24,000 bases of DNA from an uncultured Geobacter sp. (GCA_937860145.1 CALMBF010000155.1:123719-147718); one strand, 5' to 3'. Positions 918-23,213 are shown, counted from the first letter of the stretch. The notes: generated by a model not told the origin, from the letters alone. Translations and numbers: made by a program.

Positions 918-2459
918 TCAGACCGCCAGTTGTTCGGGATCGGCTGCCGGTCCGCTGTCGTGATAACGATCGTCGGTGATATAGGCGTACGGATCTTTCT
1001 CGTACCACTCGGCCCGGTACGGCAGCGGGGCATTCCCCAAGAGCCGCTGCTGGTAGGAGCGGTTGAGCAGATGCTTGGCAGATCGGCGCGCCACCTCGAA
1101 TGTCCCCTTGTACCCCAGATAGGTCTGCGGTGTCGCATACAGCGGGATGCAGGGCACGCCGAGCTTTGCAACCCAGGAGTTGCTGCCGCCATGGCCGACG
1201 TACAGGTCAGGCTTGGTCCTGTTGATCAGGTTCACCAGTTCGAATACCTGGGCCGTGGCCACGTTTACCTCCAGGTCCGGGTTGTCGCCTGCCGCCCGGA
1301 GATACAGGTCATCACCGAACTGGTCGTAATGGTGGGCCCTGAAGCCGATCACATTGGCGCCGAGCTCGTGGTAGAGCATTGCCATGGTGGCAACCCGCAT
1401 TTCCCCACCGCCGAGATAGACCCGCTTCCCCTTGATTATCTCGCAATAGCGGGCAATCCCCTTTTCCAGGGCGGCCTCTTCTGCGGCGATGAGCCGTTTG
1501 GCCTCTTCTTCCAGGCCGAAGTGGGCGGCGATCTTTTCCAGCCAGAGTGCGGTGTTGCGGATGCCGATGGGCATGGTATCGATGATGTAGGGTATGCCGT
1601 GTTTCTCCTTGAGGAAATCGAGAAAATAGTCATCATGGGTGGCGCAGATACTGACGTTCAGTGCAGCTTTGGTGATGTCGCGGAAGCTCTGTTCGTCGGA
1701 AAAGTGGGGGTAGACCTGCACCTTGAGCCCCAGGGCGCTTAGCAGCCGCTCCAGCTCGATCTCGTCGGGGCGGCCGATGGAGACGGCGTTGAACAGGTTG
1801 ACGGTCCGTTTGGCTTCTTCGTCTCGGATCTTTTGCTCACCTTCGTCCAGGTTCAGCTCCCTGGGGATGAAGTCGAGGAAACGGGCAAGACCGTGGTAGG
1901 CGGCATCGTATCCGGTGGCGGAGATGTGGGTGCGGAAGCCGGCGCAGTGCACCGGGACGACTCGGGCAGCCACCTGGGGCTGGACTTTGGCGGTTACTCC
2001 GTCCACATCGTCGCCAATGATGGCCGGGGTACAGGTGGTGATGATGAAGATGAGCTCCGGGCGATGACGGCGGTCGGCCTGGATGATGGCCGCGGCCAGT
2101 TTCTCCTCGCCGCCGTGGACCACGTCCGATTCGTCCAGGTTGGTGCTCCCCCAGATGATCCGGTCCTGTACCCGACCACGGGCTTTCTGGCCGATGCGGA
2201 ACATGCCGTCGAACTGTTGCAGCGAGCCGCCGCAGCCGGGGGGCGAATGCATCAGGACGTAGGCACCCGGGATGGTGCCGATGATGGTGAGCGCCAAGTT
2301 CATCTGGCAGCCGCCCGCCTGGGAGAAGGAGCGGCCGCTGTTCTGCAGGCAGCCGCCGCGGGAGCTCTTCACGAGCCCGTCGGAACAGCCGCCGTAGGCG
2401 TTACAGGTGCGCAGCCGGTTTTCCCTGACAGGGAGGACTTTCTGATCGGTATAAGCCAT
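918..2459 (-). CDS. Nitrogenase-like component 1 alpha-type subunit (NifD/NifE-like), paralog alpha3, 513 aa
   Basis: Start moved to the ATG at 2459, preceded by AGGAGA; the N-terminus MAYTDQKVLPVRENR aligns with the paralog at 17346. Motifs HSPPGCGG, TTCTPAIIGDD, VHCAGFR and SICATHDDY..KHGIP align to NifD C88, C154, the CEGFR region and C275. Confidence 0.9.
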   Translation of the reverse strand: MAYTDQKVLPVRENRLRTCNAYGGCSDGLVKSSRGGCLQNSGRSFSQAGGCQMNLALTIIGTIPGAYVLMHSPPGCGGSLQQFDGMFRIGQKARGRVQDRIIWGSTNLDESDVVHGGEEKLAAAIIQADRRHRPELIFIITTCTPAIIGDDVDGVTAKVQPQVAARVVPVHCAGFRTHISATGYDAAYHGLARFLDFIPRELNLDEGEQKIRDEEAKRTVNLFNAVSIGRPDEIELERLLSALGLKVQVYPHFSDEQSFRDITKAALNVSICATHDDYFLDFLKEKHGIPYIIDTMPIGIRNTALWLEKIAAHFGLEEEAKRLIAAEEAALEKGIARYCEIIKGKRVYLGGGEMRVATMAMLYHELGANVIGFRAHHYDQFGDDLYLRAAGDNPDLEVNVATAQVFELVNLINRTKPDLYVGHGGSNSWVAKLGVPCIPLYATPQTYLGYKGTFEVARRSAKHLLNRSYQQRLLGNAPLPYRAEWYEKDPYAYITDDRYHDSGPAADPEQLAV

Positions 2460-2526
2460 GGTGGTCTCCTTTCGTGGTCTTGCAATCTGTCCGTTAGTTG
2501 GAAGTTGCCGGAATGAGCGCATTAGG

Positions 2527-2683: not shown

Positions 2684-4024
2684 TTATCGGCCCGGGATCG
2701 CGAACGACATCAGATCTTCCGCCAGGCTGAGGCCCCCACGATAACCGGCATACCCTTTGTTCATCACCACGCGGTTGTTGAGCGGAAAGCTGATCCCCAG
2801 GTGGCGGGCGCCGATGTTGGCGGCCAGTTCCCCTTCGATGGTGCTTCCCAGGATATAGGCCGGGCTAAAGATAGGCGCGTAGCGGTTGCCATCGGTAGCC
2901 GGCCAAAGTCTGGCCAGGTGGGCCGGGATCTGCCCCGCATCGGTTTCGAAGATGATCGTCGGCTGATAGCCGGACTCCAGGCGGTCGTAGCCGTCTATAA
3001 CCGCTGCGTGAAACTGTTCGTCCAGTCCGTCGCTCACCACCGCCAGATCGGTCAGCCAGCCCAGCTCTTCATTGAGAAAGCGGGTTATGGGGAGGGTTGT
3101 GGTGGCATTCCCCACCACCGCGGCATAGAACTGCATGTCTACATCGGTGAACAGGTCGCTCGAGCGTTCGAAGATGCGGTAGTAGAGATCATTTTCCCTG
3201 GCGATGACTGCTTCGGTGGCTTGCGGGTCAAGCCCAAGGGCGGCAGTCACCTCCCGCAGGAAACGGGCGGTGGCCACTGCCCCCACCGGCAGATCCACGA
3301 CTTTGAACGGGGTGGCGAAGCGTTCCTCGAACGTTCTGGCCGGGTCCACGCCATAAGCACGGGATACGACCAGATTGGCCGCTGCCGCCGGTGCACTCCG
3401 CAGGTTGTCCAAGGTTTCGTCCGGGGCGAATAAGGTGTTGACCTCCAGCCCCAGAAGCCCCAGCAGGCGCTTCAGCTCAAGCAGATCACCACGGAAAAAC
3501 GGGTCCTGACCCGGTACCAGTCCCCAGAGGTTGACGAGGCGGGTGTTTATCTCCGCTGCTGGCTTGAGGTAGTGGCGGAAGAGCCCGTCCAGCAGGAGAT
3601 CATACCCCTTGTAGGAGTTCCCCTTGAAACCGCCGGTCTCGATGCCGATCACCGGTATGCCGTTGTCCCGGTGCTCCTGGACCACCGACTGAATGTCATC
3701 GCCGATGATGTCGGTCATGCAGGCCGACACCACCACGTAGAGCTCGCCGTCCATCAGCTCATGGGTGGTGCGGATCTGCTCGCTCAAGCGGTCGCTGCCA
3801 CCGAACACCACCTCATTCTCGACGATGTTGGAGCCGGGGAGCGACGTGCCGCCGCAGTAGCCGGCCCCGTAAAAGCCGCTGCCGGCATAATGGGCCATGT
3901 GCAGGTTGCCGCCGCAGCCGCCGGAGCCATGAATGATCGGGATGGCTTTCGGCAGTGAGGTGATGGCGCTGAGCGCCCCTCCCAGGGCGCAGGTGAAGCG
4001 GGGGTGATCGATAGGGGTACTCAT
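2684..4024 (-). CDS. Nitrogenase-like component 1 beta-type subunit (NifK/NifN-like), paralog beta3, 446 aa
   Basis: Motifs FTCALGGAL, IIHGSGGCGG and SACMTDIIGDD match the three NifK P-cluster cysteine contexts. GGAGGA RBS before the ATG at 4024. Close paralog of 19075..20412. Confidence 0.9.
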   Translation of the reverse strand: MSTPIDHPRFTCALGGALSAITSLPKAIPIIHGSGGCGGNLHMAHYAGSGFYGAGYCGGTSLPGSNIVENEVVFGGSDRLSEQIRTTHELMDGELYVVVSACMTDIIGDDIQSVVQEHRDNGIPVIGIETGGFKGNSYKGYDLLLDGLFRHYLKPAAEINTRLVNLWGLVPGQDPFFRGDLLELKRLLGLLGLEVNTLFAPDETLDNLRSAPAAAANLVVSRAYGVDPARTFEERFATPFKVVDLPVGAVATARFLREVTAALGLDPQATEAVIARENDLYYRIFERSSDLFTDVDMQFYAAVVGNATTTLPITRFLNEELGWLTDLAVVSDGLDEQFHAAVIDGYDRLESGYQPTIIFETDAGQIPAHLARLWPATDGNRYAPIFSPAYILGSTIEGELAANIGARHLGISFPLNNRVVMNKGYAGYRGGLSLAEDLMSFAIPGR

Positions 4025-4051: not shown

Positions 4052-4723
4052 TTAGTGAATTGCGCCAAAATCTGTTTCCAGTAGCACCATTCCCGGTGCA
4101 ATCTCGATAAACGAATCGCCGTCCCACGGGCCGTTGACGACCCGCCGCAACCATGCGTCGCGGCCGCCTATGGTCAGGAATTCCAGCCCCAGCAGCCCAG
4201 CCAGTTCGCGGCCGGTTGCCAGGTGCGCTGTTTCCCTGGGATGGCCGGTATGAACGAAAACAATGCGCCGGTAGGCATCGAACATGGTGGCCATCACCCG
4301 TTTTGCCTTCTGCTCGCCATATTTTTCCCGTACGCGCCGGTATTCGGAAAATACGGTCCGCTCCCCCTCCAGCCAGCCGCCGGAGAGGAAATAAGTCCCC
4401 TTTTCCTCACGGAGGAGTTCTTCATGGGTGTACCGGGACCCAAGGAGGAGCGGGATGCAGTCGTGGGCTCTCGGAATGAACAGCGGTATCCCTGGCGCAG
4501 TCAGTCCTGCCACCGCCCCGCCGCAGAGGCCGAAAGCCAGCACCACCCGGTCTCTACCAGTGGCGCTGGCAAGAACCGCGCGTAACTCCTCCCGCAGTTT
4601 GTCCGGCCAGCGGTGCAGCCCCATGGAGACAAAGTGGAAGATGACCGGGTGTGTCGGCGTTATTGCCAGAAGTTCTTCCTTCATGACGTCGCAGGCAATG
4701 ATGTGGGTAGGTGCGTCAGGCAT
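4052..4723 (-). CDS. DUF1638 domain protein, 223 aa
   Basis: The pattern IIACDVMKEEL...GLH..P..L...FGLCGG...AHDC...LGS...FLSGGW is typical of DUF1638. It lies 27 nt upstream of beta3 on the same strand. Confidence 0.7.
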   Translation of the reverse strand: MPDAPTHIIACDVMKEELLAITPTHPVIFHFVSMGLHRWPDKLREELRAVLASATGRDRVVLAFGLCGGAVAGLTAPGIPLFIPRAHDCIPLLLGSRYTHEELLREEKGTYFLSGGWLEGERTVFSEYRRVREKYGEQKAKRVMATMFDAYRRIVFVHTGHPRETAHLATGRELAGLLGLEFLTIGGRDAWLRRVVNGPWDGDSFIEIAPGMVLLETDFGAIH

Positions 4724-4807: not shown

Positions 4808-4874
4808 CCGGTTGGCATGATTTCTCGATAAATTGTGTCGATTACACGTACAGCTCTCTGCACATATGGTGACT

Positions 4875-6056
4875 TCAGGCCAGCCTTGCAGCCCGGTCGA
4901 TGCGCTCCCAGGGGAGATCCAGGTCGTTCCTGCCGAAGTGGCCGTAGGCGGCGGTCTGGCGGTAGATGGGGCGGCGCAGGTCGAGCTGCTCGATGATGGC
5001 CGCCGGGCGGAGGTCAAAATTATCCCTGATGATCAGGGCGAGCTGTTCGTCCGACACCTTGCCGGTGCAGAATGAGTCGACGAACACCGCCACCGGCCGG
5101 GCCACGCCGATGGCGTAGGCGATCTGGATCTCAACCCGCGACGCCAGTCCGGCGGCAACCAGGTTCTTGGCCACGTAGCGGGCGGCATAGGCACCGGAGC
5201 GGTCCACCTTCGTGGGATCCTTGCCCGAGAAGGCACCGCCGCCGTGTCGGGCCACGCCGCCGTAGCTGTCGACGATGATCTTGCGGCCGGTGAGGCCGGC
5301 GTCGCCGTGGGGGCCGCCGACGACGAAGCGACCGGTGGGGTTGATGAAGAAACGGGTCTGGTTGTCCAACAGGTTCGCCGGGATCACCGGCTTGACGATA
5401 CGCTCGATGACGTCGCCGCGGATCTGCTCCAGCTCCACGTCGGGAGCGTGCTGGGTGGAGATGACCACCGTGTCGATCCGTGTCGGCGTGCCGTTTTCGA
5501 ACTGCACCGTCACCTGGCTCTTGCCGTCGGGGCGGAGGTAGCCGATTTCCCCTGATTTTCTGGCCGAGGCCAGCTTGCGGGTCAGGCCGTGGGCCAGGTG
5601 GATGCTGGTGGGGAGGTAGGCATCGGTCTCGTCGGTGGCGTAGCCGAAGACCATTCCCTGGTCACCGGCGCCGACGGAATCGAGATAGCCGTCATGGTCA
5701 ATGCCGGAGCGCTGCTCCAGGGCCGAGTTGACCCCTTGGGCGATATCGGGCGACTGCTGGTCAAGGGAAACCAGGACGGCACTGTGTTCGGCATCGAGCC
5801 CCAGTTCCGAGTTTGTGTAACCGACTTCAGTTATTGCGTCCCGGGCGACGCGAACGGCGTTGATCTGGGCAGTGGCCGAGGTCTCGCCGATGACGACGAC
5901 CAGGCCGGTGGTGACGCTGGTTTCGCAGGCGACGCGGGCAAGGGGATCTTTGTCGAGAAAAGCGTCGAGGATCGAGTCGGAGATGAAATCCGCCAGTTTG
6001 TCCGGGTGCCCTTCGGTGACCGATTCTGAAGTGAAGAGGTAGTTATGTGCCGGCAT
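4875..6056 (-). CDS. metK: S-adenosylmethionine synthetase, 393 aa
   Basis: [23 protein letters not shown]..., GAGDQG and the [11 protein letters not shown] motif. Start set at the ATG at 6056 with an AAGGAG RBS; the longer track ORF to 6347 covers the leader region. Confidence 0.95.
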
Positions 6057-6107
6057 TGCTGCTCCTTTCTGGTGATACCTTGAGTCGCATCCATGGTCTA
6101 TTCGCAT

Positions 6108-6367: not shown

Positions 6368-6556
6368 GTGCCGATTGTATCCATCGATTTTGGTTCAAAG
6401 CTGTCGAAAGAGCAGAAACAGGCCGTTGCCAAAGGGGTCACGGGGACGATTGCCGCGGCGACGGGCGTTCCGCAAGAGTCGGTCATCGTCATCATCAATG
6501 AGGTGGACAGGGATAATATTGCCAAGGCCGGGGTGCTGTTTTCCGACCGCACATAA
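6368..6556 (+). CDS. 4-oxalocrotonate tautomerase family protein, 62 aa
   Basis: GTG start with an AAGGAGAG RBS. N-terminal Met-Pro (MPIVSI...), the size and the ...KEQKQAVAKGVT... pattern are typical of the 4-OT family. Confidence 0.75.
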   Translation: MPIVSIDFGSKLSKEQKQAVAKGVTGTIAAATGVPQESVIVIINEVDRDNIAKAGVLFSDRT

Positions 6557-6579
6557 TTCAGCTGACAGGAGGATTGGAT

Positions 6580-8082
6580 ATGTTGAAACGAATAGTATCG
6601 GGAATAGTCGGCGTCATTGCCATCGCTGCCTCTGCATTCGCTGCCGACGTGACACTGAAGAGCCGGCTCGATCCGGTGATTGACCGTGCCATCAAGGATG
6701 AGCGGATTGTCGGCACGGTCGTTCTGGTCGCCAGGGATGGAAAACTGATTTACAAAAAGGCGGCCGGACTTGCCGATCGCGAGGCCAGGCGACCCGTGAC
6801 CCTGGATACGCAATTCCGTCTGGCGTCCCTGACCAAACCGATCGTTGCCGCGGCAACGGTTGCCCTGGCCGATGCGGAAATCTTCCGGCTCGACGATCCG
6901 GTGACCAGATGGTATCCGGAGTTCAAGCCGAAACTTGCCGACGGCAGGGAGCCGGATGTGACGGTTTATCAGCTGCTCTCCCACACTGCCGGACTCGGGT
7001 ACGGTTATCTGGAGTCAGGCAAAGGCCCTTACCACCAGGCCGGAGTATCCGACGGCTTCGACCGTTCCGTACCGTCACTGGACGAGAACCTGAAACGCCT
7101 TGCCAAGGCGCCGCTGCTTTATGAGCCGGGCACGGGCTGGTCCTATTCCATTGGCTACGAACTGCTCGGCGGGGTTCTTGAAAACGCCGGCAAGGGTAGA
7201 CTGCCCGCGGTTTTGCAGCGGACGGTGACCAAGCCGCTCGGTCTCAAGGCAACAACATTCACCCCTGCTGACAAGAAGCGCGTCGCTGCCCAGTACGCCT
7301 TTGCCATTCCGCGGCCGAAGCGTCTGGCCGACAGCGACACCATTGACGTCGGCAAGAGTCCGCTCCCTGTTGCTCCCGGCCGTGTCTTCGACCGGAAGGC
7401 CTACCCGTCTGCAGGCGCCGGTCTGGTCGGTACCGCAGAAGACTATCTCAAATTCCTGGAAGCCATCCGTCAGGGCGGAACACCGATTCTGGACAGTGCG
7501 GCGGTCTATTCGTTTACGACCAATTCCCTCGGGCTGATTACTTCACCAGCCCTGGGCAAAGGCTGGGGATACGGCTACGGCGTGGCGGTCCTGAAGAACC
7601 AGGGACTGGCGGAGTCGCTGCACGGTGTGGGGACCTGGCGGCTCAGCGGTGAATACGGCAGCCACTTCTGGGTGGATCCGCAGGCCGGTCTGACCGTGGT
7701 CGTGTTGACCAATACCGCCGGCGCCGGGACCCAGGAGCGCTTCAGTGACGACATCACCCGGGCGGTGTACGGCCCGGAGCGGAAGATAGCTCAGCCGACC
7801 GTCGACGGTATCCCCGTCACCACTGTTGTCGAGGGGAAAGCCTATAAATTCGTCCCCGAGGCAGTCAATGCGGCCAGTTTCAGCATCGCCAACAAGCCGT
7901 CCTGGGCCGCTTTCGACGCTGCCAGCGGCGCCCTGACCGGCACGCCGAAGACAGAAGATGTTGGCACCTACGGCGACATCGTGATCACCGCCACCAACAG
8001 CAGTGGTTCAGCGTCTCTCCCCGGCTTTGCCTTAACCGTCGCACCCGTTCCGCCGCCGGCCGCACCGGTAGCCGCAAAATAG
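6580..8082 (+). CDS. Secreted serine hydrolase (beta-lactamase/class C-like esterase family) with a C-terminal Ig-like domain, 500 aa
   Basis: ATG at 6580, 7 nt after AGGAGG. Signal-peptide-like N-terminus; SxxK motif ASLTKP; the C-terminal roughly 90 aa (KPSWAAFDAASGALTGTP...GTYGDIVITATN) looks like a bacterial Ig/cadherin-like repeat; Pro/Ala tail. Confidence 0.8.
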   Translation: MLKRIVSGIVGVIAIAASAFAADVTLKSRLDPVIDRAIKDERIVGTVVLVARDGKLIYKKAAGLADREARRPVTLDTQFRLASLTKPIVAAATVALADAEIFRLDDPVTRWYPEFKPKLADGREPDVTVYQLLSHTAGLGYGYLESGKGPYHQAGVSDGFDRSVPSLDENLKRLAKAPLLYEPGTGWSYSIGYELLGGVLENAGKGRLPAVLQRTVTKPLGLKATTFTPADKKRVAAQYAFAIPRPKRLADSDTIDVGKSPLPVAPGRVFDRKAYPSAGAGLVGTAEDYLKFLEAIRQGGTPILDSAAVYSFTTNSLGLITSPALGKGWGYGYGVAVLKNQGLAESLHGVGTWRLSGEYGSHFWVDPQAGLTVVVLTNTAGAGTQERFSDDITRAVYGPERKIAQPTVDGIPVTTVVEGKAYKFVPEAVNAASFSIANKPSWAAFDAASGALTGTPKTEDVGTYGDIVITATNSSGSASLPGFALTVAPVPPPAAPVAAK

Positions 8083-8194
8083 CGGGAGCTGGTACGATGA
8101 TCGTTCATCGTTAATCCGGTGGTTGAGCGGTGGCGGAGGAGGCACGTCATGCGAACGGAGTCACCGCTCAACTACCGACTGTGGAGAATCGTTC

Positions 8195-9016
8195 GTGATA
8201 CAACTTGATCTGGACACCCGGCTCCTGGCCGAAAATTATGACGAGCTGAGCGACTACCAGTTCGACAATGGTCGACGTCTACTGGAACTGCTCGATATCC
8301 GGCCCAACTCACGGGTCCTCGACATCGGCTGCGGTACGGGCCGTCTCGGGCTCCTGGTCGCGGAGTCCCTTGGTGACGACGGAAGGCTCATCGGCATTGA
8401 CCCTCTGCCCGAGCGGATCAGGATCGCCTGCAGCAAGAAGGCCCCGGCCAATGCGCGCTTTCAGGTCGGGGTGGGTGAGGACCTCGGTTTTCTCGACTGC
8501 GAGAGCATTGATGTCGTCTTTCTGAGTGCGGTATTCCACTGGATTGCCAACAAGGAGAAAGCGCTGCGGGAAATAGCCCGGGTGCTCAAGCCGGGGGGAC
8601 GGATCGGCCTTACCACGGGAGCCAGGGAGTTGGCCCGGGAAGCAACGTACCGCAAGATTACGGATCGGGTTCTGCTTCGCCTACCGTACAACAAGGTAGT
8701 CAATATCGAGGATTATGTCTTTACCCGGCACGGCGTTACCGCAACCCAGCTGGTACAGCACTTCCTCGGCGCCAAGCTGGCCGTGCAGAGCGTCGACATC
8801 CGCAAGCGATGCAAGTATTTCCGCAGCGGGATGGAGATTGTCGATTTTCTTGAATCGAGCACCTTCGGCAACTATCTGCAGCATGTGCCCGGCAACTTGC
8901 GGGAGGATGCCCGACGTGAGATCATTCTCGAGTTCGATAGCCTGAAGGCCGGTGGCCAGGTCGAGTTTACCGGGTTCACCATCTTTGCCGTGGCGGAGAA
9001 GCCGCTGGTGGATTGA
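8195..9016 (+). CDS. Class I SAM-dependent methyltransferase, paralog 1, 273 aa
   Basis: GTG at 8195 after GGAGAA. Motif I is VLDIGCGTGRLG. It aligns end to end (roughly half the residues identical by eye) with 16353..17171. The upstream part of the track ORF (from 8123) is unsupported. Confidence 0.8.
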   Translation: MIQLDLDTRLLAENYDELSDYQFDNGRRLLELLDIRPNSRVLDIGCGTGRLGLLVAESLGDDGRLIGIDPLPERIRIACSKKAPANARFQVGVGEDLGFLDCESIDVVFLSAVFHWIANKEKALREIARVLKPGGRIGLTTGARELAREATYRKITDRVLLRLPYNKVVNIEDYVFTRHGVTATQLVQHFLGAKLAVQSVDIRKRCKYFRSGMEIVDFLESSTFGNYLQHVPGNLREDARREIILEFDSLKAGGQVEFTGFTIFAVAEKPLVD

Positions 9017-9040
9017 ACCGCCGGCAAGCCGGGAGCTCAA

Positions 9041-10545: not shown

Positions 10546-10585
10546 TCATCTCCTAAAGGTAGTGTTTCGGGCAAACAATTAATAA

Positions 10586-10615
10586 TTGACGGGCAAACTG
10601 TTTTCGTGGTAATAA
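10586..10615 (+). promoter_or_regulatory. Candidate sigma70 promoter for the nifS-selD operon
   Basis: TTGACG-N17/18-GTAATA/TAATAA in an AT-rich gap, flanked by the direct repeat CGGGCAAAC at 10568-10576 and 10590-10598. Confidence 0.4.
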
Positions 10616-10658
10616 ATCTATAAACACGATAGATAATATAGTTACAAGGAGGGGCGCA

Positions 10659-12857: not shown

Positions 12858-12868
12858 GGATATCAGAC

Positions 12869-13645: not shown

Positions 13646-13699
13646 AAACCTTGCGGATTGCTATTGTCAGCGTAACTGAGACGTTAGCGGAGGTACTAC

Positions 13700-14287: not shown

Positions 14288-14352
14288 GGAACGTCAGTCG
14301 ACAGATGCGCAGCCGGGACAAAAGAAAAGCTTGGTGAGCAGGAGGGAGTTCT

Positions 14353-15816
14353 ATGGGCAATCGTAACCTGTTACGTGATCCGATCTGGCGAGGCGATGAA
14401 CTGGGAAAGGCACTTCCCGATTCGCTCCATGCCGTCTCCGTGGCGCTGCCGCATTGGCAGGACGTGGTTGGTTATGAGGAGAAGCGGCCCGAGGTGGTCA
14501 ATCGATTGCAATGCGGCTACCCCCGCTTCGTCATTCACCGCCTGGTGCAGGATCTGGCGCGGTTTATCGCCGGTGATCGCCCCTGCCTGCCGTTCCCTTC
14601 GCAGCACACGGCGCAGCAGTGCGTGGCTTTCATTCATCGCCAGAGCGGCGTCGAAGCTCAGGTGGTCGAGCGGGACGGGCAGTATGGTGTTGCCACGACC
14701 GACAGCGGTTACGACAGCCTCAAGGCTTTCTGGCAGCATACCGGCCTGATCGTCTCCACCCGCCGGGCCCAGTCGATATTGAGCGGTATCTCGCGGGTAC
14801 AATCTGATGATCGGGAAGTGCGGGATTCTCTTCGGCGACAGCTGGCCGGGTTGTACGACTGTTCTCCCGATGACGTATTCCTGCAGCCAACCGGCATGGC
14901 GGCCATGTTTGCCGCCCTGCGGGCGGTCATGCGGCGTACACCGGGCAGGCCGACGGTGCAGATCGGCTTCCCTTATGTGGATACGCTCAAGCTGCAGGAG
15001 AAATTCGGCCACGGCGCAACCCTGCTCCATGACCTCAACCATTGTACTGAAAACCTGCGTGCCCTTCTGCAACAAGGGGCTCTAGCCGGATGCTTCAGTG
15101 AGATTCCCGGTAACCCCTTGCTCGGATCTGCCGATCTGCGCGAGATCACCCCGATCCTGCGGGAGCACGGCGTGCCGCTGGTGGCCGACGACGTTGTTGC
15201 CACACCCCTGAACGTGGACCTCGGTTCCCATGCCGACCTGATCGCCACCAGCCTGACCAAATACATTTTCGGCAGGGGGGACGTCATGGGTGGCGCCCTG
15301 ATCTGCAACCCCCGCTCTCCCTATCACATCGAGCTTAGGGCCATTGCAACATCGCTGCACGAGGAGCTTCTCTGGCTTGATGATGCCGTGGTGCTGGAAG
15401 AGCAGATCGGCAGCTTTCCGGAGCGGATGCGGGTTCACAACCGTAACGGCCTGATCATTGCCGAACGGCTTCGCTCCCATCCTGCAGTTGAACAGGTCTG
15501 GTTTCCGAAATGGTCGTTCGGCGACGCCTACGAGGCGGTGCGCCGACCCGATGGCGGGTGGGGTTCCCTGGTCACCTTTCTGCCAAAGAACGCCGAGACC
15601 GCGTCACCCCGTATCTATGACAATCTTGAAGTTTGCAAGGGCCCGAGTCTGGGAACCAGCTTTACCCTGGCCTGTCCCTTTACCCTGCTGGCCCATTACA
15701 CTGAACTGGAGTGGGCTGAGGCCTGCGGGGTGCCGCGGTATCTGATCCGGCTCTCCGTGGGGCTCGAAGATCCGGAAGAACTCTGGGGCCGGATTGTCCG
15801 GGCGCTGGAAGCATAA
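14353..15816 (+). CDS. Cys/Met-metabolism PLP-dependent enzyme (cystathionine gamma-synthase-like, long Str2-type form), 487 aa
   Basis: The PLP-lysine context SLTKYIFGRGDVMGG, plus an N-terminal extension of roughly 100 aa with HAVSVALPHWQDVVGYEE. AGGAGG RBS. Confidence 0.75.
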   Translation: MGNRNLLRDPIWRGDELGKALPDSLHAVSVALPHWQDVVGYEEKRPEVVNRLQCGYPRFVIHRLVQDLARFIAGDRPCLPFPSQHTAQQCVAFIHRQSGVEAQVVERDGQYGVATTDSGYDSLKAFWQHTGLIVSTRRAQSILSGISRVQSDDREVRDSLRRQLAGLYDCSPDDVFLQPTGMAAMFAALRAVMRRTPGRPTVQIGFPYVDTLKLQEKFGHGATLLHDLNHCTENLRALLQQGALAGCFSEIPGNPLLGSADLREITPILREHGVPLVADDVVATPLNVDLGSHADLIATSLTKYIFGRGDVMGGALICNPRSPYHIELRAIATSLHEELLWLDDAVVLEEQIGSFPERMRVHNRNGLIIAERLRSHPAVEQVWFPKWSFGDAYEAVRRPDGGWGSLVTFLPKNAETASPRIYDNLEVCKGPSLGTSFTLACPFTLLAHYTELEWAEACGVPRYLIRLSVGLEDPEELWGRIVRALEA

Positions 15817-16114: not shown

Positions 16115-16336
16115 ATGACTGCAGAGGTTGAAACTGTTCTGGATCTTGTCCGGCCAGCGTTACTGGCGGACGGGGGAAATGTGGAGCTGGTGGAGATTAC
16201 CGAGGATGGTTTTGTGAAGGTGCAGCTGACTGGAGCCTGTGGCCACTGTCCCATGTCGGCACAGACGCTTAAGTTAGGTGTTGAACGGACCCTGAAGAGC
16301 AAGCTCCCCTGGGTAAAAGGAGTGCTGTCAATTTAG
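16115..16336 (+). CDS. Nfu/NifU C-terminal-domain Fe-S cluster carrier protein, 73 aa
   Basis: ATG at 16115 after [24 protein letters not shown]...GACGHCPMS is the NifU C-terminal CxxC signature. Confidence 0.85.
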
Positions 16337-16352: not shown

Positions 16353-17171
16353 ATGATATCCCTTGCGCTTGATAACAGTAAACTCGCCAAAACCTACGAC
16401 GAAATCAGCGATTCCCAGTACGAGTCCGGCAAGAAGCTGCTTGCCGAACTCAAAGTCAAACCGGGTGAGACCGTGCTCGACATCGGCTGCGGCACCGGTC
16501 GGCTCGGACTCTACCTGCTCGATATTATCGGTCCGACCGGCCGTTTCATCGGCATCGATCCGCTGCCGGAGCGTATCAGTATTGCCAATGACAATAATGT
16601 TCACCCTAACGCCGAATTCCGTACCGGTGTGGCTGAAGACCTCTCGTTTCTGGGGAACAACAGCGTCGACCTGGTCTACCTGAGCGCCGTGTTCCACTGG
16701 GTACCCGATAAGCAGAAGGCATTGCAGGAGATCAGCCGGGTGTTGAAGCCGGGTGGCAGGATCGGTTTGACCACCAACGCCAAGGAGTTGGTTAAGGCGA
16801 CCACCCTCCGTTCCGTGACCACGGAGGTGTTATCTCGGGTTCCCTATCGCGGCCAAGTGGATGCCGAGGCTTTTGCCCCGACCCGCCACGGGGTGACAGC
16901 CACCCAGCTGGTTGAGCTCTTTCTCGATGCGGGATTCAGGGTTGCGGACGTCCGTGTCCTGGCCATCGAGCGTTTGTACCATACCGGACGTGATATCGTC
17001 GACTTTGCCGAAGCAAGTACCTTTGGCAATTACCTGAACCACGTGCCGGCAGATTTGCGGGATAAAGCCCGTTTTGACCTGGAGAGCGCCTTTGAGATAC
17101 TGCGTGGTGACGAGGGGATTCCGTTTCAGCTATATACACTTTTTGCCATTGCCGAAAAGATCGGCGCCTGA
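16353..17171 (+). CDS. Class I SAM-dependent methyltransferase, paralog 2, 272 aa
   Basis: Motif I is VLDIGCGTGRLG. Collinear with 8195..9016 (shared blocks LSAVFHW, VLKPGGRIGLTT, RHGVTATQLV, STFGNYL.HVP). Confidence 0.85.
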   Translation: MISLALDNSKLAKTYDEISDSQYESGKKLLAELKVKPGETVLDIGCGTGRLGLYLLDIIGPTGRFIGIDPLPERISIANDNNVHPNAEFRTGVAEDLSFLGNNSVDLVYLSAVFHWVPDKQKALQEISRVLKPGGRIGLTTNAKELVKATTLRSVTTEVLSRVPYRGQVDAEAFAPTRHGVTATQLVELFLDAGFRVADVRVLAIERLYHTGRDIVDFAEASTFGNYLNHVPADLRDKARFDLESAFEILRGDEGIPFQLYTLFAIAEKIGA

Positions 17172-17345: not shown

Positions 17346-18875
17346 ATGGGATTGAAAGAAGACCGGGTTGTCCCCGGCAGGGAAGACCGGGTAGCGGCCT
17401 GCATGGCCTATGGCGGCAGCGCCTGCAGTATCGGCGGCGAAAGCAAGGCATGTCTGAAGAACAGCGAGCGGGGTTTTTCCCAGGCCGGCATCTGCCAGCT
17501 ACTGCCGACCTTGGGGATGCTCCTGACCCTGCCGGATATTGCCGTGATCATCCATGGCGCCATCGGCTGCGGTTCTGCCGGGTTCGGTATGAATGTCAGT
17601 ATTCGCCTGCATCATCTGCTCCGCGGCAATCCCAATGCCAAGGACAGCCTATGGTTCAGTACCAACCTGGATGAGGCGGATGTGGTGCATGGCGGCGAAC
17701 AGCGGCTGGAGGAGACTATCCTCACTGTAAACGAACGCTACAAACCGAAATCCATCGTCGTGGTGCAGACCTGCACCCCGTCCATCATCGGCGATGATCT
17801 CGTGGGGGTGGTGGAAAAAGTCCGGCCGCTGGTGGAGGCCAACATACTCTATGCCCACTGCGAAGGGTTCAAGACCAAGGTCTGGGCCACCGGCTATGAC
17901 GTGGCTTTTCATGCCATGATTCACGGTTACATAGAAAAGGACAAGGAGGGGCCGCCGCCACGAAAAGCCCCCTGGCAACCGGGACAGCGGCCGACGGTCA
18001 ATGTCATCAACCTGGCCTCCGTCGGCAAGCCGGACGAGGAGGAGATCGAACGGCTCCTCAATGCCATCGGCATCGATGTGACCATCGGCCCCAACTTCGC
18101 CGACCGGGAAAAGGTGCGGCAGCTGACTCAGGCCGACCTGACGGTCAGCATCTGCCCGACCCATGACGACTACCTGGTCGATTACCTGCACACCGAGTAC
18201 GGCATCCCCTTCGTCCTGAAGGACATGCCGATCGGCCTGGAGAATACCCGCAACTGGTTGCTGGATATTGCGGGCAAATTCGGTCTGGAAAAGGAGGCGC
18301 TGGCCCTGATAGAGGCCGAGGAGGCCAGGGCGCGCACAGCGGTGGAGCGCTTCCTTCCCGTGCTGAAGGGGATCCGGGTATTTCTCTCCGCCGGTGAGTT
18401 CCGGGCGCTGGTTACCGGCGGGCTGTTCCAGGAGCTGGGGATGGAGATCGTCGGGGTACGCTCCTACCACCATGACGAGTTCGGCACCGATTTCTACGGC
18501 CGGCTGGTAAACGGTCAGCAGGGGAAGGACTTCCCGGTGGATATCGCCAATTTCCAGCCCTTCGAACTGGTCAATCTGTTGCAGCAGGTCAAGCCGGACC
18601 TCTTTGCCGGCCATATCTGGGACAACGCCTGGGCCGCCCGCCTCGGCTATCCCACCATCACCATCTTCCGCATCTTCGACTACTACGTCGGCTACCGCGG
18701 TTTCTATGAAGTGGCAAAAAAGGCGGCCCGCATCCTGCGCAACCATTCGTTCAATGCCAATCTGAGCAGAAACGTTACCGATGCCTACCGCCCGGAGTGG
18801 TATGAGCAGAACGCTTTCAAATACATCAAGTCAGGGCTGCCTGAGGGTCTGCAATCGGATACAGCTGCAGTGTAA
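17346..18875 (+). CDS. Nitrogenase-like alpha-type subunit (NifD/NifE-like), paralog alpha1, 509 aa
   Basis: ATG at 17346 after GGAGAGAGG. Motifs IHGAIGCGS, QTCTPSIIGDD, AHCEGFK and SICPTHDDY..EYGIP. Collinear with alpha3. Confidence 0.9.
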   Translation: MGLKEDRVVPGREDRVAACMAYGGSACSIGGESKACLKNSERGFSQAGICQLLPTLGMLLTLPDIAVIIHGAIGCGSAGFGMNVSIRLHHLLRGNPNAKDSLWFSTNLDEADVVHGGEQRLEETILTVNERYKPKSIVVVQTCTPSIIGDDLVGVVEKVRPLVEANILYAHCEGFKTKVWATGYDVAFHAMIHGYIEKDKEGPPPRKAPWQPGQRPTVNVINLASVGKPDEEEIERLLNAIGIDVTIGPNFADREKVRQLTQADLTVSICPTHDDYLVDYLHTEYGIPFVLKDMPIGLENTRNWLLDIAGKFGLEKEALALIEAEEARARTAVERFLPVLKGIRVFLSAGEFRALVTGGLFQELGMEIVGVRSYHHDEFGTDFYGRLVNGQQGKDFPVDIANFQPFELVNLLQQVKPDLFAGHIWDNAWAARLGYPTITIFRIFDYYVGYRGFYEVAKKAARILRNHSFNANLSRNVTDAYRPEWYEQNAFKYIKSGLPEGLQSDTAAV

Positions 18876-19013: not shown

Positions 19014-19074
19014 GACTCTGTATAAGCTGTAGTGGCAGGTACGATTAAATTAATTACCAAGGAGTAACATCCAT

Positions 19075-20412
19075 ATGAGCACATTTATTGAACGCCCCCG
19101 CTACCAGTGCGCCCTCGGCGGCGCGCTGGTTACCATCAATGCCATTGAACGGGCAGTGGCAATTGTCCACGCTTCACCCGGGTGCGCTGCGGCTGCCGAT
19201 GGCGCCGCTGCCTTTGGCGGCGGCTACTGGGGGTCCACCGTCCACGACGGCCGGGCCACCCCGAGCAGTAACATCGTCGAGCGTGAAGTCATCTTCGGCG
19301 GTGAGGAGCGGCTTGCCGAGCAGATCAGCGCCACCCTCGATGTGGTCGACGCCGATCTCTACGCGGTCATCACCGGCTGCATGACCGACATCATCGGCGA
19401 CGATGTCCGCTCGGTGGTGAACGAGTTCCGCAGACAGGGGAAACCGGTCATAGTAGCCGAAACCGGCGGCTTCAAGGGAAACTCCACCGTCGGCTACGAA
19501 TTTCTCTGGGATGCACTGATCAACCAGTTCGTCTCAAAGGGGCTGCCGAAAAAAGACCGGCTGGTCAACATTTTCGGTGTGCTGCCGGTACAGGATGTTT
19601 TCTGGCGCGGCAACCTGCTCGAACTGAAAAGGCTGCTGTCAGCCATCGGCATCGAGGCCAACACCTTTGTTACCCCGTTCGATGACACCGCGTCGCTGAA
19701 AAACGCCTCCCAGGCGGCTCTTTCGATCGTCCTTTCCGATGTCCACGGTCAAAAGGCCGCCGCTCTTTTCGAGGAGGTACACGGGGTGCCGTATATCACC
19801 GAGTCCCTCCCGTTCGGCCCGACGGCGACGGAACGGTTCCTGCGCCGGATCGCAGAACTCTTCAACATCTCCTCGGCAAAGCTGAACCGGGTACTGAAGG
19901 AAGAGCGCCGGCACTATTACCAGTTCATCAATCCGCTGACCGATCTCTTTACCGACCAGGATTTCCAGCGTTTCGGCGTGGTCATCGGCAATGCCAATTA
20001 CGCTTACGCGGTGAGTCGCTTCATCGCCGACGATCTCGGCTGGATTCCCTATTTTGCGGCCATCACCGATATTCTGGATGAACAGCAGCAGGCAGCGGTA
20101 CTGGCGCGTTTTGCCACGATTCCCGAACAGGCGCGCCCCAAGGTCATTTTCGAGACCGACACCAGCCGGATCAGGGAGCGGCTGTTTGCCGAACTGGAAA
20201 AGGAGAATGATCCTTACGGGACCCCGATCAGTCCGGCATTCGTTATCGGCAGTAACCTCGACCGTCCTCTGGCTGCGGATCTGAAGGCCGGCTTCTGGGG
20301 CGTATCCTATCCGATTACCAACCGGGTTGTGACCGACCAGGGTTATCTCGGCTATCGTGGCGGCCTGCGCTTGGCGACCGAGGTTGTCAGCGCACTTGTT
20401 AGCAACCGATAA
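19075..20412 (+). CDS. Nitrogenase-like beta-type subunit (NifK/NifN-like), paralog beta1, 445 aa
   Basis: Motifs YQCALGGAL, IVHASPGCAA and TGCMTDIIGDD. AAGGAG RBS. Close paralog of beta3. Confidence 0.9.
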   Translation: MSTFIERPRYQCALGGALVTINAIERAVAIVHASPGCAAAADGAAAFGGGYWGSTVHDGRATPSSNIVEREVIFGGEERLAEQISATLDVVDADLYAVITGCMTDIIGDDVRSVVNEFRRQGKPVIVAETGGFKGNSTVGYEFLWDALINQFVSKGLPKKDRLVNIFGVLPVQDVFWRGNLLELKRLLSAIGIEANTFVTPFDDTASLKNASQAALSIVLSDVHGQKAAALFEEVHGVPYITESLPFGPTATERFLRRIAELFNISSAKLNRVLKEERRHYYQFINPLTDLFTDQDFQRFGVVIGNANYAYAVSRFIADDLGWIPYFAAITDILDEQQQAAVLARFATIPEQARPKVIFETDTSRIRERLFAELEKENDPYGTPISPAFVIGSNLDRPLAADLKAGFWGVSYPITNRVVTDQGYLGYRGGLRLATEVVSALVSNR

Positions 20413-20424: not shown

Positions 20425-21897
20425 ATGGCAATCAATCTAAATCTTTCCGAAGCACCGATCCGCGAGGCTCGTCTCGGGGCCATCACCGGCTATAACGGTA
20501 CCCTCAAGGATCTGGTCAGCCGTAGCGGTTGCGGTGCAACGATCAATAACTGCGAGCGGAGTTTCAGCCAGACCAGTTCCTGCAGCTCCGGCTGTGCCCA
20601 GACCCTTCTGGCAAACATTGTCGATGCGGCAATTGTCAATCACGCTCCCATCGGCTGTGCCGGCGACACCATTTATCACAACATCGCCAACCATTACGGC
20701 CGCTTCTACCGTGGGCAGGATAACCGCAACATCCAGTTGATCAACACCAATATCGAAGAGTCGGACACGGTGTTCGGCGGTGCTGAAAAGCTGCGGGCCG
20801 GGATTCTGGAGGCATGGCGACGTTTCAAGCCGAAGGCGATTTTCGTCAGCACCTCCTGTGCCTCGGGGATTATCGGGGACGATATCAAGGGGGTTATCAG
20901 CGACCTGGGGGAAGAGGTCCCGATTCCGGTCATTCCGGTCTCCTGTGAAGGGTTTCGCAGCAAGGTCTGGGCCTCCGGATTCGATGCCGCCTTTCATGCG
21001 GTTCTGACCGGTATCGTCAAGCCTCCCCGGCGGTCACAGCCGAACCTGGTGAACATGGTCAACTTCCGTGGCAGTGCCCGGGAGTATATCACCCGACTGT
21101 TCGGCAGACTCGGCCTTGAGCCGCGCTTTATTCTCCCCTTTGCCTCGGTGGAGGAGCTGGAAACCATCTCCGAGGCGGCGGTGACCGCCACGGTCTGCAC
21201 CACCCTTGGCAGTTATATCGGCACGGCTCTGGAAGAGCAGTACGGCGTTCCCTATGTGAAAACCATTCCGCCCCACGGTGTTGCCGGTATCGAGGCCTGG
21301 CTGCGCGGCATCGCAGCTGCTGTCGGCAAGCAGGGTGAGGTGGAGGAGCTGATCGCCGAAGAGCGTGCCGCCACTGTCGACGATCTTGCCGAGATCCGTC
21401 GCCGCCTGGACGGAAAGACTGCCGTATTGGGGATGGGGCCCAGTTATGCCCAGTCTTACCTCGGGGTGCTGGAAGAGCTGGGGATAACGGTTCTGCACGC
21501 TGCCAGCTGGCACTATGACCAGCGTTATGACTATGGCGAGCAGCCGCCGGCCATTTTGCGCGCTGCCGGCCGGGAAGAGGACGTCACCTTCAGCGTCGGT
21601 GACCAGCAGCTGTTCGAGATCGGCAACAAGCTCTCCAGGGTCAAGCCCGATCTCTATTTCTCCCGTCACCCCGGCAGTTCGGTCTGGGGCGCCAAGCTGG
21701 GGATAACCGCTGTCCCGGTTATCGATGAGTACACCGCTTTCGGTCATCGTGGCCTTGTGAACTTCGGCTATCGGATCATCGATGCCCTGACCAACCGGCA
21801 CTTTGTCACCAAACTGGCGGAGCGGGTAACACTCCCCTACACGACCTGGTGGTTCGAACAGGACCCCTATTCATTTCTTGAGCAGGAGGTAATCTGA
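20425..21897 (+). CDS. Nitrogenase-like alpha-type subunit, divergent paralog alpha2, 490 aa
   Basis: Motifs NHAPIGCAGD, STSCASGIIGDD, VSCEGFRSKVWASGFDAAFHA and TVCTTLGSY..QYGVP. AAGGAGAG RBS 12 nt after the beta1 stop. Confidence 0.9.
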   Translation: MAINLNLSEAPIREARLGAITGYNGTLKDLVSRSGCGATINNCERSFSQTSSCSSGCAQTLLANIVDAAIVNHAPIGCAGDTIYHNIANHYGRFYRGQDNRNIQLINTNIEESDTVFGGAEKLRAGILEAWRRFKPKAIFVSTSCASGIIGDDIKGVISDLGEEVPIPVIPVSCEGFRSKVWASGFDAAFHAVLTGIVKPPRRSQPNLVNMVNFRGSAREYITRLFGRLGLEPRFILPFASVEELETISEAAVTATVCTTLGSYIGTALEEQYGVPYVKTIPPHGVAGIEAWLRGIAAAVGKQGEVEELIAEERAATVDDLAEIRRRLDGKTAVLGMGPSYAQSYLGVLEELGITVLHAASWHYDQRYDYGEQPPAILRAAGREEDVTFSVGDQQLFEIGNKLSRVKPDLYFSRHPGSSVWGAKLGITAVPVIDEYTAFGHRGLVNFGYRIIDALTNRHFVTKLAERVTLPYTTWWFEQDPYSFLEQEVI

Positions 21898-23213
21898 TGG
21901 CAGGACCGATAGAACAGATACGAAACGTCTGCGCCCTGGGCGCACTGCAGTCGGTGGTGGCGATTCAGCGGGCAATCCCCATAATCCATGCCGGCCCGGG
22001 GTGCGGACAGAAACTATGGAGCGGACTCTCCAACGGCAACGGTTTCCAGGGGGCGAGTTATGTCGGGGGTCATGCGGTTCCCTGCAGCAATGCTACGGAA
22101 AAGGAGGTGGTTTTCGGCGGCGAGGACAAGCTTCGGGAAACGGTGGAAAACACTCTCAAGGTCATGGATGGCGACCTCTTTGTGGTGTTGACCGGCTGCA
22201 CCTCCGACATCGTCGGCGATGATGTGGGGGAGGTGGTGCGCAGCTTCAAAAACAAAGGGACGCCAATCGTCTACGTGGAAACCGGTGGCTTCAAGGGTGA
22301 CAACTACTTTGGCCATGAACTGCTCTGGGAGGCGATTATCGAGCAGTTTCTGGAAAAATCAGACAGGATGGAGCAGGGGCTGGTGAATGTCTGGAGTGTC
22401 ATCCCCTATCAGGACCCCTACTGGACCGGTACCTTGCATGCCATTGCCGACCTGCTCCGCTCCATCGGGCTCAAGCCGAACATCATCTATGGACCGGGGG
22501 AAGGGGTCGCTTCGGTGCGCAAGATCCCGTCAGCCCAGTTTAACCTGCTCATCTCTCCTTGGGCCGGCCTGAAAACGGTCAAGCGACTGGAAGAGAAGTT
22601 CGGTACACCCTTTTTCCATTACCCGGCGCTCCCCATTGGTGCCACCGAGAGCGGCTCCTTCCTGCGGTCAGTCGGCAGCTTTGCCGGCATCCCGGTATCA
22701 CGGGTGGAGGAGACCATCAAACGGGAGGAGGAGCGTTACTATTATTACGTGGAGCGGTCAGCCGATCTGCTCTTCGAGACCCGCTTCCTCCCCGGCCATT
22801 TCGTTACCATTGCCGACAGCTTCTATTCCCTGGGCCTGACACGCTTCCTGATCAATGATCTGGGGCTGATTCCCGAAGTGCAGTTCGTTACCGAAGCCGT
22901 GCCTGAAGAGTTCCGGCCGCTGGTGGAGACGGAGTTCGCCAGGTTCGATGAAGGCCTGGTGTCGCCGGTGCACTACGGCGCCGATGGAGCAACGGTGCGT
23001 GACGAACTGGCGAAACACAAATTCCGCGAACGGCCACTCATTCTCGGCAGCAGCTGGGACCGGGTAATAGCCCGGGAACTGAAAGGGTATCCGTTGTCGG
23101 TCGCCATGCCGGTCAGCGACCGGCTGGTGCTGAGCCGCACCTATGCTGGCTATGACGGGGCGCTTCGGTTGACGGAGGATATCTACTCCGTGATCCTGGG
23201 CAGCTTCCAGTAG
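21897..23213 (+). CDS. Nitrogenase-like beta-type subunit, divergent paralog beta2, 438 aa
   Basis: Motifs NVCALGAL, IIHAGPGCGQ and TGCTSDIVGDD. The start overlaps the alpha2 stop (cTGATGg). Confidence 0.9.
   Translation: MAGPIEQIRNVCALGALQSVVAIQRAIPIIHAGPGCGQKLWSGLSNGNGFQGASYVGGHAVPCSNATEKEVVFGGEDKLRETVENTLKVMDGDLFVVLTGCTSDIVGDDVGEVVRSFKNKGTPIVYVETGGFKGDNYFGHELLWEAIIEQFLEKSDRMEQGLVNVWSVIPYQDPYWTGTLHAIADLLRSIGLKPNIIYGPGEGVASVRKIPSAQFNLLISPWAGLKTVKRLEEKFGTPFFHYPALPIGATESGSFLRSVGSFAGIPVSRVEETIKREEERYYYYVERSADLLFETRFLPGHFVTIADSFYSLGLTRFLINDLGLIPEVQFVTEAVPEEFRPLVETEFARFDEGLVSPVHYGADGATVRDELAKHKFRERPLILGSSWDRVIARELKGYPLSVAMPVSDRLVLSRTYAGYDGALRLTEDIYSVILGSFQ

Follow-up and report, generated by a model that had tools for sequence, protein, structure and literature searches.

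The DNA analysed here, a stretch of 24,000 nucleotides from an uncultured Geobacter sp. (GCA_937860145.1 CALMBF010000155.1:123719-147718; hereafter the window), exhibits five non-coding leaders that carry copies of one conserved RNA element. In each leader a short motif with the consensus GCUGA-CCRG-N4-5-CYGG-AGG abuts an intrinsic terminator. The leaders stand before units encoding three nitrogenase-like enzyme pairs of the Mar type, S-adenosylmethionine (SAM) synthetase (metK), two methyltransferases and a set of transporters and sulfur/selenium activation proteins. In other genomes the same element is physically linked to genes of a small orphan protein family, DUF2292, and we favour, with moderate confidence, the reading that the leaders are a shared attenuator at which the DUF2292 protein acts as an antiterminator. 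The window lies on a 106 kb metagenome contig, of which 38 kb (window and flanks) were read.

Reading and aligning the non-coding stretches identified the five leaders as follows.

Leader L1, 4757..4816, minus strand: GCCAA-CCGG-AAAA-CCGG-AGG, then terminator and U-run; precedes DUF1638-NflK1-NflD1
Leader L2, 6108..6165, minus strand: CCA-CCAG-ACACA-CUGG-AGG, then terminator; precedes metK
Leader L3, 6287..6333, plus strand: GCUGA-CCAG-AGAA-CUGG-AGG, then terminator; precedes the operon running from a tautomerase to a pyridoxal phosphate (PLP) enzyme
Leader L4, 15956..16000, plus strand: GCUGA-CCAG-AUAA-CUGG-AGG, then terminator; precedes Nfu and the second methyltransferase (MTase2)
Leader L5, 17249..17314, plus strand: GCUGA-CCGG-CAAAG-CCGG-AGG, then terminator; between MTase2 and NflD2

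All five fit a scheme of GCUGA, a 4-bp hairpin and an AGG pairing at the base of the terminator, L1 and L2 having variant 5' flanks; in L1 the 3' strand of the hairpin is absorbed into the terminator stem. The promoter of L3 is divergent from that of metK, and about 60 nt ahead of L4 there is a TTGACA-17-TATATA promoter. The pattern CCRG-N4/5-CYGGAGG matches the window six times, compared with 0.18 + 0.22 (about 0.4) matches expected from dinucleotide shuffles. Five of these matches are in the leaders, each followed by a GC-rich hairpin and a U-run; the sixth, at 20798, is located inside a coding region, with a G.U pair and without a terminator. A relaxed scan of the window added no copy to these, and the motif is not present in the clear 3'-end terminator at 839-877, which serves as an internal control. 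Two extra copies are found just beyond the window on the same contig (L128 -16929 and L001 +16101), one preceding a flavodoxin-cupin-NifX-like-UroD-ThiI-like operon, the other a lipoprotein/porin-like gene pair. An earlier note on this DNA had claimed that the metK leader motif precedes every nitrogenase-like unit, and had read the whole as a SAM/methionine-responsive regulon. The shared element is real, although it exists in five copies, one of which also heads the operon at 6368-15816. Since the units share one specific cis element, they are probably co-regulated; the proposed signal did not hold, as described below.

A perfect palindrome, TCTTGACTTGTCAAGA (about 6222-6242), spans the overlapping -35 boxes of the divergent L2 (metK) and L3 promoters and is kept in the related locus L106. 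It may be a transcription-factor site providing a second level of control.

The element behaves as a paired RNA. In a metagenome scan with the pattern CTGACCRGAAAACYGGAGG, which leaves the third hairpin pair free (R/Y), this pair was G-C in 41 and A-U in 38 of the copies followed by a U-run, with a single G.U and no A.C. When copies were anchored on UGA...AGG only, the stems were CCAG/CUGG (60 copies), CCGG/CCGG (46), CUGG/CCAG (4) and CCUG/CAGG (1), together with three G.U variants. Two of the four hairpin pairs thus covary, and the tolerance of wobble with the absence of A.C is a signature of RNA pairing. Of 119 distinct copies, 103 have the whole AGG base-paired as terminator base and 76 form the hairpin in their minimum-free-energy fold; the terminator interiors exhibit sequences unrelated from copy to copy. 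The motif is a conserved RNA element and not a generic terminator, as its covariation, its conservation across phyla and its absence from the 839-877 terminator show.

Known RNA families were searched with Rfam 15 (cmscan). No family was found in the window at the gathering score or at E<=5, and the isolated leaders at E<=10 returned only terminator look-alikes far below cut-off. The same scans do detect true SAM-I riboswitches in L042, L245, L235 and L254, and cobalamin riboswitches in related loci. The window leaders share with SAM riboswitches their position in the 5' leader of metK and sulfur genes and the terminator platform; they match no covariance model of any SAM riboswitch class (SAM-I/S-box, II, III, IV, V, VI, SAM/SAH) or of the SAH riboswitch. 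The thiS/HMP-PP riboswitch was rejected on architecture. A leader peptide ending at the conserved UGA was discarded, in-frame upstream ORFs (open reading frames) being no commoner than those in the other two frames, as were small ORFs starting after GGAGG, which are inconsistent between copies, and an antiterminator pairing of UGACC with GGUCA, where the A is invariant while the Y of AGGYC varies without covariation. The ncRNA survey of 50 genomes by the Breaker laboratory, which included one Geobacter, lists the yjbM and nifV motifs and not this one. Geobacter S-boxes were reported only upstream of metIC and metX (Rodionov et al. 2004; PMC545781), and riboswitches go unmentioned in a 2026 review of nitrogen-fixation-like proteins.

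Outside the window, the element recurs in Geobacterales, NC10, Dehalococcoidia, Firmicutes and viral contigs, always oriented toward the downstream gene. A genome scan with GCTGACCRG-N4-5-CYGGAGGYC gave nine real loci among the 120 matches listed, which are dominated by chance matches in high-GC actinobacteria. Geotalea sp. SG265 carries six copies in 21 kb, including one tandem pair; tandem copies stand in locus L002 (-9500/-9407), and L042 holds three copies. Other motif-bearing sequences come from Geobacter sp. SVR, from Geomesophilobacter and from metagenome-assembled genomes (MAGs) of Geobacteraceae, Desulfuromonadaceae, Pelobacter and Dehalococcoidales, and in a Ca. Methylomirabilis MAG three copies lie inside a cysI-yeiH-cysH-sat cluster. 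The downstream genes in Geobacterales and NC10 encode SsuB/SsuA(NMT1)-type ABC transporters, CysK, MetK, NifX-like, NifH-like and NflD proteins, sulfite reductase (cysI), phosphoadenylylsulfate (PAPS) reductase (cysH) and ATP sulfurylase (sat). Other metagenome contexts comprise phage-type genes (HNH, portal-like, small-terminase-like), InhA-type proteases and large surface proteins, and corrinoid proteins follow the motif in some other loci. The idea of a cluster conserved in fixed order did not survive this comparison: the arrangement is modular (L002, L106). A SAM-I or cobalamin riboswitch precedes several copies at a distance of 170-400 nt, and in L042, L245 and L254 an S-box and the motif stand in series in one leader. 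The SAM or methionine signal of the earlier note finds no support in these contexts or in the Rfam scans, which gave no SAM riboswitch match: a motif that follows SAM-I riboswitches in some leaders and cobalamin riboswitches in others, and that precedes genes of phages and proteases, does not itself specify SAM.

Four loci (L136, L159, L168 and L241) exhibit the motif with a long terminator before a gene for an InhA-type metalloprotease of about 800 aa (Bacillus cereus group-like). Group II intron domains (Rfam RF02001, RF02005) were identified in L106 (1180-1353, minus strand) and L252 (4196-4438, minus strand). The 5' end of the L106 intron (GUGCG...) starts right behind the motif terminator, upstream of a beta-lactamase-fold gene; this placement fits the terminator-homing class C introns and confirms that such an intron recognises the hairpin as a terminator.

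The element has a recurrent partner gene. In two leaders a small ORF is located between the riboswitch and the motif, and the one in L042 belongs to Pfam DUF2292 (PF10055). A hidden Markov model built from leader ORFs detects DUF2292-like ORFs in 65 loci, and the motif lies within 200 nt downstream of 43 of the 61 first-round ORFs of this kind. Counted from the element, a DUF2292-like ORF ends at most 250 nt upstream in 30 of 104 terminator-linked copies, at a median distance of 29 nt (range 6-210 nt). The other 74 (about 70%), including all window copies, are orphans, as expected if the copies form a regulon. In an independent test, DUF2292 proteins were retrieved by protein search alone and their contigs (four, plus two of Geobacterales type) were then looked up; the motif was found downstream of DUF2292 in all six subfamilies tested. 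Contigs of Desulfuromonadales/Geobacterales type exhibit the order Rrf2, cysK, DUF2292 (the start of which overlaps the cysK stop), motif/terminator and a NifH-like gene, and one of them carries a full sulfate-assimilation cluster alongside. A Bacillaceae genome has a SAM-I riboswitch, yezD and the motif/terminator before cysH-cysP-sat-cysC; Dorea has cysK, DUF2292 and the motif (as the CUGG/CCAG variant) before DUF1847 and an NMT1 ABC transporter; and in a gut contig an ABC transporter, DUF2292 and the motif precede ThiS/ThiF/rhodanese genes. In a sludge contig DUF2292 is flanked by two motif copies, followed by radical-SAM (NifB-like), NifH-like, NifX-like, NflD and NflK genes. The motif is also found in 16 viral contigs of IMG/VR, and in 11 of them a DUF2292-like ORF precedes it on the same strand; a tblastn search of the INPHARED phage collection with a phage-type DUF2292 gave no match. 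The inputs ahead of DUF2292 are thus SAM-I riboswitches (L042, L254), cobalamin riboswitches (six loci) and Rrf2-cysK, a variety that fits a generic protein-RNA output module.

Database homologues of the partner ORFs are named "YezD family", and the nearest curated NCBIfam model is the sulfur-starvation protein OscA of Pseudomonas (37 bits against a cut-off of 85). In the searchable literature we found no function, mechanism or RNA link for DUF2292, YezD or OscA.

In L130, L135, L138, L144, L167 and L216, a cobalamin riboswitch is followed by DUF2292, the motif/terminator and a large secreted or surface protein. These contigs are AT-rich and Firmicutes-like, and the arrangement represents a B12-linked use of the module. 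A promoter-proximal box like AAGTnnATAGAC/ATCGAC stands just downstream of the -10 element in some, not all, motif-bearing leaders (window 15925-15940 and, on the minus strand, 6195-6205 and 4835-4845; L002 about 9875 and, on the minus strand, about 9525; L249/L252 about 9005). It is also found upstream of cysK in the Rrf2-cysK-DUF2292 loci and could be an Rrf2 operator.

In the model that we favour, the five leaders would be copies of one attenuator, composed of a single-stranded GCUGA, a 4-bp hairpin and an AGG providing the first three pairs of a terminator stacked on that hairpin. By default, transcription would stop in the leader. The attenuator itself is probably not a metabolite sensor; it would be the target of the DUF2292 protein of about 50-60 aa (YezD; related to OscA). 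This protein would be encoded elsewhere, in an operon of the type Rrf2-cysK-DUF2292-motif-nifH-like, presumably derepressed on cysteine or sulfur limitation. By binding GCUGA, hairpin and AGG, it would keep the base of the terminator open and permit read-through at all copies. The regulon would then serve the scavenging and assimilation of sulfur, with the three Mar-type pairs, metK, methyltransferases, transporters and proteins of Fe-S and Se/S activation as its members. The NifH-like reductase missing beside the three pairs would come from the Rrf2-cysK operon as well. From its relatives we infer that the window organism has DUF2292. The location of this gene in an Rrf2-cysK operon of Geobacterales points to cysteine or sulfur status as the input, and in the window lineage this operon is the most likely one. 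More tentatively, and with somewhat more doubt than conviction, we propose that DUF2292/YezD/OscA may constitute a widespread family of small antiterminators that bind RNA, that have so far gone unrecognised and whose cognate target is the GCUGA-hairpin-AGG element. It would form a portable module, placed behind SAM-I or cobalamin riboswitches, Rrf2-type repressors or phage promoters, that broadcasts one input to many operons. Anaerobic organosulfur scavenging by Mar-type enzymes, and metK, would have this module as their master switch in Geobacterales.

Several points weigh against antitermination by DUF2292. No DUF2292 ORF was found in the window, in L001/L128 or in the 38 kb of contig read, and around several motif copies (InhA-type protease leaders and some phage-like loci) the DNA read contains no DUF2292 gene. 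The AlphaFold model of the protein, a helix with a beta-hairpin, is of moderate quality (pLDDT 69) and has no significant structural neighbour, and no solved structure matches DUF2292 by sequence. Most loci were fetched with the motif pattern itself, by which the conservation of the fixed positions is overstated; free of this bias are only the R/Y pair, position -5 and the loci retrieved by protein. The direction of control could be the opposite one, and a small ligand may act with the protein or instead of it.

Such a ligand is central to the alternative that survives best, which we consider unlikely: a small metabolite-sensing riboswitch with an aptamer embedded in the terminator, responding to SAM, methionine or another sulfur metabolite, and DUF2292 as a co-regulated passenger. 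The position before metK and sulfur-assimilation genes, the tandem copies of L002 and a riboswitch-like distribution across phyla speak for it, and overlap of aptamer and terminator has a precedent (PMC6478431); however, the conserved core amounts to only about 20 nt, its loop is variable and no Rfam model matches it. A sensor of this kind would also have to work downstream of SAM-I and cobalamin riboswitches in the same leaders, and before phage late-type and InhA-type protease genes that have no link to sulfur. The tight, repeated adjacency to one small-protein family would be left unexplained.

Less probable still is a real attenuator served by another trans factor, such as Rrf2, a CysK complex, a protein of the Hfq/CsrA type or a small RNA, with DUF2292 playing some other role in sulfur starvation. 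A single-stranded GCUGA with a GGAGG-like sequence could suit many RNA-binding factors, and DUF2292 has no recognisable RNA-binding fold. The adjoining Rrf2 and cysK genes of Geobacterales would speak for such a factor, but in the Bacillaceae, cobalamin-riboswitch and phage contexts neither gene adjoins the motif, whereas DUF2292 does. A cis effect of DUF2292 translation, in which the ribosome at the stop codon of the ORF would modulate the terminator and the protein would be irrelevant, is very improbable; the median stop-to-motif distance is short enough for this, but the distances spread from 6 to 210 nt, about 70% of the copies, with all five of the window among them, have no upstream ORF, and conservation of the protein itself, as a Pfam family, extends across phyla. 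Ordinary terminators, or a repeated or mobile intergenic element of no shared regulatory meaning, are largely refuted and scarcely credible: each copy does contain a canonical terminator, the only weak Rfam matches are terminator-like and terminator-homing introns adjoin one copy (L106), yet the 20 nt upstream of the differing stems are conserved with covariation across phyla, always face the downstream gene, strongly exceed the shuffled expectation and are missing from the 3'-end terminator of the window.

Antitermination by DUF2292 would resemble several known protein-controlled attenuators. HutP/hut, PyrR/pyr, LicT-SacY/RAT and ANTAR systems, too, have a short hairpin overlapping or next to an intrinsic terminator, and multiple operons in one regulon. 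As in hut, the regulator gene can lie directly upstream of a target terminator, and as in pyr, copies may be repeated between the cistrons of one operon (three in L042). In contrast, the motif exhibits neither sequence nor model similarity to these targets, nor an Rfam match, and the candidate protein, whose binding we infer, belongs to an unrelated family of 50-60 aa. The HMP-PP (thiS) riboswitch is likewise a tiny element whose conserved nucleotides reach the terminator base, and it can follow another riboswitch (PMC6478431). However, in thiS the terminator loop is conserved and only thiamin genes carry the element, whereas the present motif has a variable terminator interior, diverse gene contexts and a partner protein gene. 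SAM-I (S-box) regulons similarly control metK and sulfur/methionine genes by termination, but the motif matches no SAM riboswitch model. With OscA/YezD, the partner ORFs share membership of PF10055 and sulfur-assimilation contexts; they fall below the OscA cut-off, and the window holds no member.

The genes of the window were inventoried by ORF listing and by Pfam and NCBIfam profile scans, which bore out the list given in the earlier note (the pairs, metK, methyltransferases, Nfu, Sec-SelD, PLP enzyme and transporters).

839..877, both strands: intrinsic terminator, bidirectional, between convergent genes; without the motif
918..2459, minus strand: NflD1, Mar-type alpha-like subunit; equivalents of the MarD ligands kept, Trp195 replaced by Ser
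2684..4024, minus strand: NflK1, beta-like subunit; order K then D
4052..4723, minus strand: DUF1638 protein (Pfam scan)
4875..6059, minus strand: metK, SAM synthetase
6368..15816, plus strand: probable single operon behind leader L3, nine genes from tautomerase to PLP enzyme, about 9.5 kb
6368-6556, plus strand: 4-oxalocrotonate tautomerase (4-OT)-like ORF
6574-8082, plus strand: beta-lactamase-fold/He_PIG protein
8123-9016, plus strand: methyltransferase 1 (MTase1)
9041-10006, plus strand: EamA transporter
10006-10545, plus strand: nitroreductase
10659-12857, plus strand: NifS-Sec-SelD (Sec, selenocysteine), one reading frame
12869-13645, plus strand: TauE transporter
13700-14287, plus strand: ChrA-like transporter
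14353-15816, plus strand: Cys/Met-family PLP enzyme
16115..16336, plus strand: Nfu/NifU C-terminal-domain protein
16353..17171, plus strand: MTase2, class I SAM methyltransferase
17346..18875, plus strand: NflD2, Mar-type alpha-like subunit
19075..20412, plus strand: NflK2
20425..21897, plus strand: NflD3, closest MarD homologue
21897..23213, plus strand: NflK3, closest MarK homologue

The two methyltransferases are 53% identical, and an MFS transporter begins after the D/K pairs, the window showing its start. In the relative locus L106, the DUF1638 gene follows that of a URO-D/MtaA-like methyltransferase.

The three Oxidored_nitro pairs are assigned by sequence to the Mar type, which fits the Mar-like reading of the earlier note, D3K3 being a close MarDK homologue. 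None of the six proteins reaches the NCBIfam cut-off for NifD/K/E/N, Bch or Cfb, the best NifDK/NifEN equivalog scores being 152-178 bits against cut-offs of 486-654. In a comparison with solved structures that covered five of the proteins, the best match of NflD1, D2, D3, K2 and K3 is MarDK of R. rubrum (9FMG, 9D9U). The scores to MarD are 214 bits for NflD1, 193 for NflD2 and 371 for NflD3 (E-value 1e-109), and those to MarK are 273 for NflK2 and 434 for NflK3 (E-value 7e-129), compared with about 82 (D2) and 149 (D3) bits to NifD and about 65-76 bits to NifK. In Mar, the metal ligands are MarD C66/C91/C158 and MarK C32/C56/C121, with Cys270 and loop-I His429 binding the [Fe8S9C] cofactor (PMC12552129). 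In the alignment, equivalents of the P-cluster cysteines, Cys270 and His429 are conserved in NflD1-3, and the three corresponding Cys motifs are present in NflK1-3. The equivalent of Arg428 is kept only in NflD3, where Cys73/Gln74 are not kept, and Trp195 is lost in NflD1. These pocket differences between paralogues fit substrate specialisation like that reported for the two active Mar isozymes of R. palustris. In that species, several paralogous DK pairs occur per genome and all NFL loci are induced by sulfur limitation.

The window and the 10 kb flanking it on each side contain no NifH-like or NifB-like (MarH, MarB) gene; in relatives these genes sit elsewhere. Orthologous pairs of relatives are found among SsuA/NMT1-type ABC transporters, MetY-type enzymes, cysK, cysE, sat, cysH and NifH-like genes. 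The units of the window plausibly form a set for the anaerobic scavenging and assimilation of organosulfur, possibly organoselenium, compounds. Salvage of methyl-sulfur and methyl-selenium by MarHDK-like genes has been proposed already (PMC10418091), and a Mar-like C-S/C-Se cleavage feeding methionine and SAM would extend such published proposals.

Compared with MarBHDK of R. rubrum and R. palustris, the window enzymes have MarDK as best solved relative and keep the P-cluster Cys triads and Cys270/His429, and the K-then-D order of pair 1 recalls marKD2. They differ in having no marH or marB beside the pairs, the NifH-like gene of relatives being in a distant cysK-DUF2292 operon, and in active-site residues. 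The type I mlp clusters (PMC10418091) also combine MarHDK-like genes with URO-D-type methyltransferases, SelD and methionine genes proposed for methyl-S/Se salvage, and one URO-D gene lies about 0.5 kb beyond the left end of the window (L128). In contrast, the methyltransferases of the window are class I SAM enzymes, DUF1638 is present, and no URO-D gene, corrinoid protein or activase (RamA) lies inside it; the published description of the mlp clusters does not include the present motif.

The selenium side of the set is suggested by a single feature, the Sec-SelD fusion. The NifS-like cysteine desulfurase runs in frame through a TGA (11856-11858), read as Sec, into SelD, giving "...SCAG-U-AAKISP". 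The Sec residue sits in the N-terminal G-x-G-(C/U)-x-x-K loop of SelD, here as CAG-U-AAK, and SelD scores 386 bits to TIGR00476 (cut-off 125). A SECIS-like hairpin after the SelD UGA was predicted without significance (z -1.3). JGI calls NifS and SelD as two genes, and a possible promoter of their own (TTGACG-17-TAATAA) is located in the 114-nt gap at 10546-10658. As to the Cys/Met-family PLP enzyme, its identification as a MetY orthologue was ruled out (TIGR01326, 76 bits against a cut-off of 495). Its best curated match is BesB, a lyase of an alkyne-amino-acid pathway (210 bits against a cut-off of 800). The enzyme carries an N-terminal extension of about 150 aa and is not a standard MetY, MetB or MetC.

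Other observations concern the ends and spacers of these genes. The truncated first gene of the window (5-823) encodes a ThiI/PP-loop ATPase whose C-terminus carries an NFACT-R_2 RNA-binding domain, and is a member of the motif-led operon that starts outside the window (L128 -16929). In the Pelobacter MAG, DUF2292, the motif and a NifB-like fragment are followed by this gene (L086 6661-7755). metK, intact in the window, is split into 340 aa and 72 aa by the JGI calls in locus L128 (7970-9150). Compared at one fixed offset, L128 and the window mismatch at 6,487 of 14,024 positions and agree over part of the overlap only, which suggests an indel between them. The 200-nt NflD2-NflK2 spacer (18876-19074) contains the palindrome CTCCCTCAGGGAGA/G twice and resembles a small inserted repeat. 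Unlike D2/K2, NflD3 and NflK3 abut (stop at 21895-21897, ATG at 21897).

For Mar-type enzymes, the only regulation known is that exerted by SalR, a LysR protein of purple bacteria (PMC13474568), whereas an RNA attenuator is found before the pairs described here. This different control, at the RNA level, ties three Mar-type pairs, SAM synthesis and sulfur/selenium activation together in a lineage of anaerobic metal reducers. The motif also provides a hypothesis for the orphan family DUF2292/YezD/OscA, which is found in cysH leaders of Bacillaceae as well as in gut Firmicutes, Geobacterales, NC10 and phages. If the model is true, it would explain the tiny ORF behind some SAM and B12 riboswitches, and the motif would be a marker for sulfur-starvation regulons and for new organosulfur and organoselenium enzymes in uncultured anaerobes.

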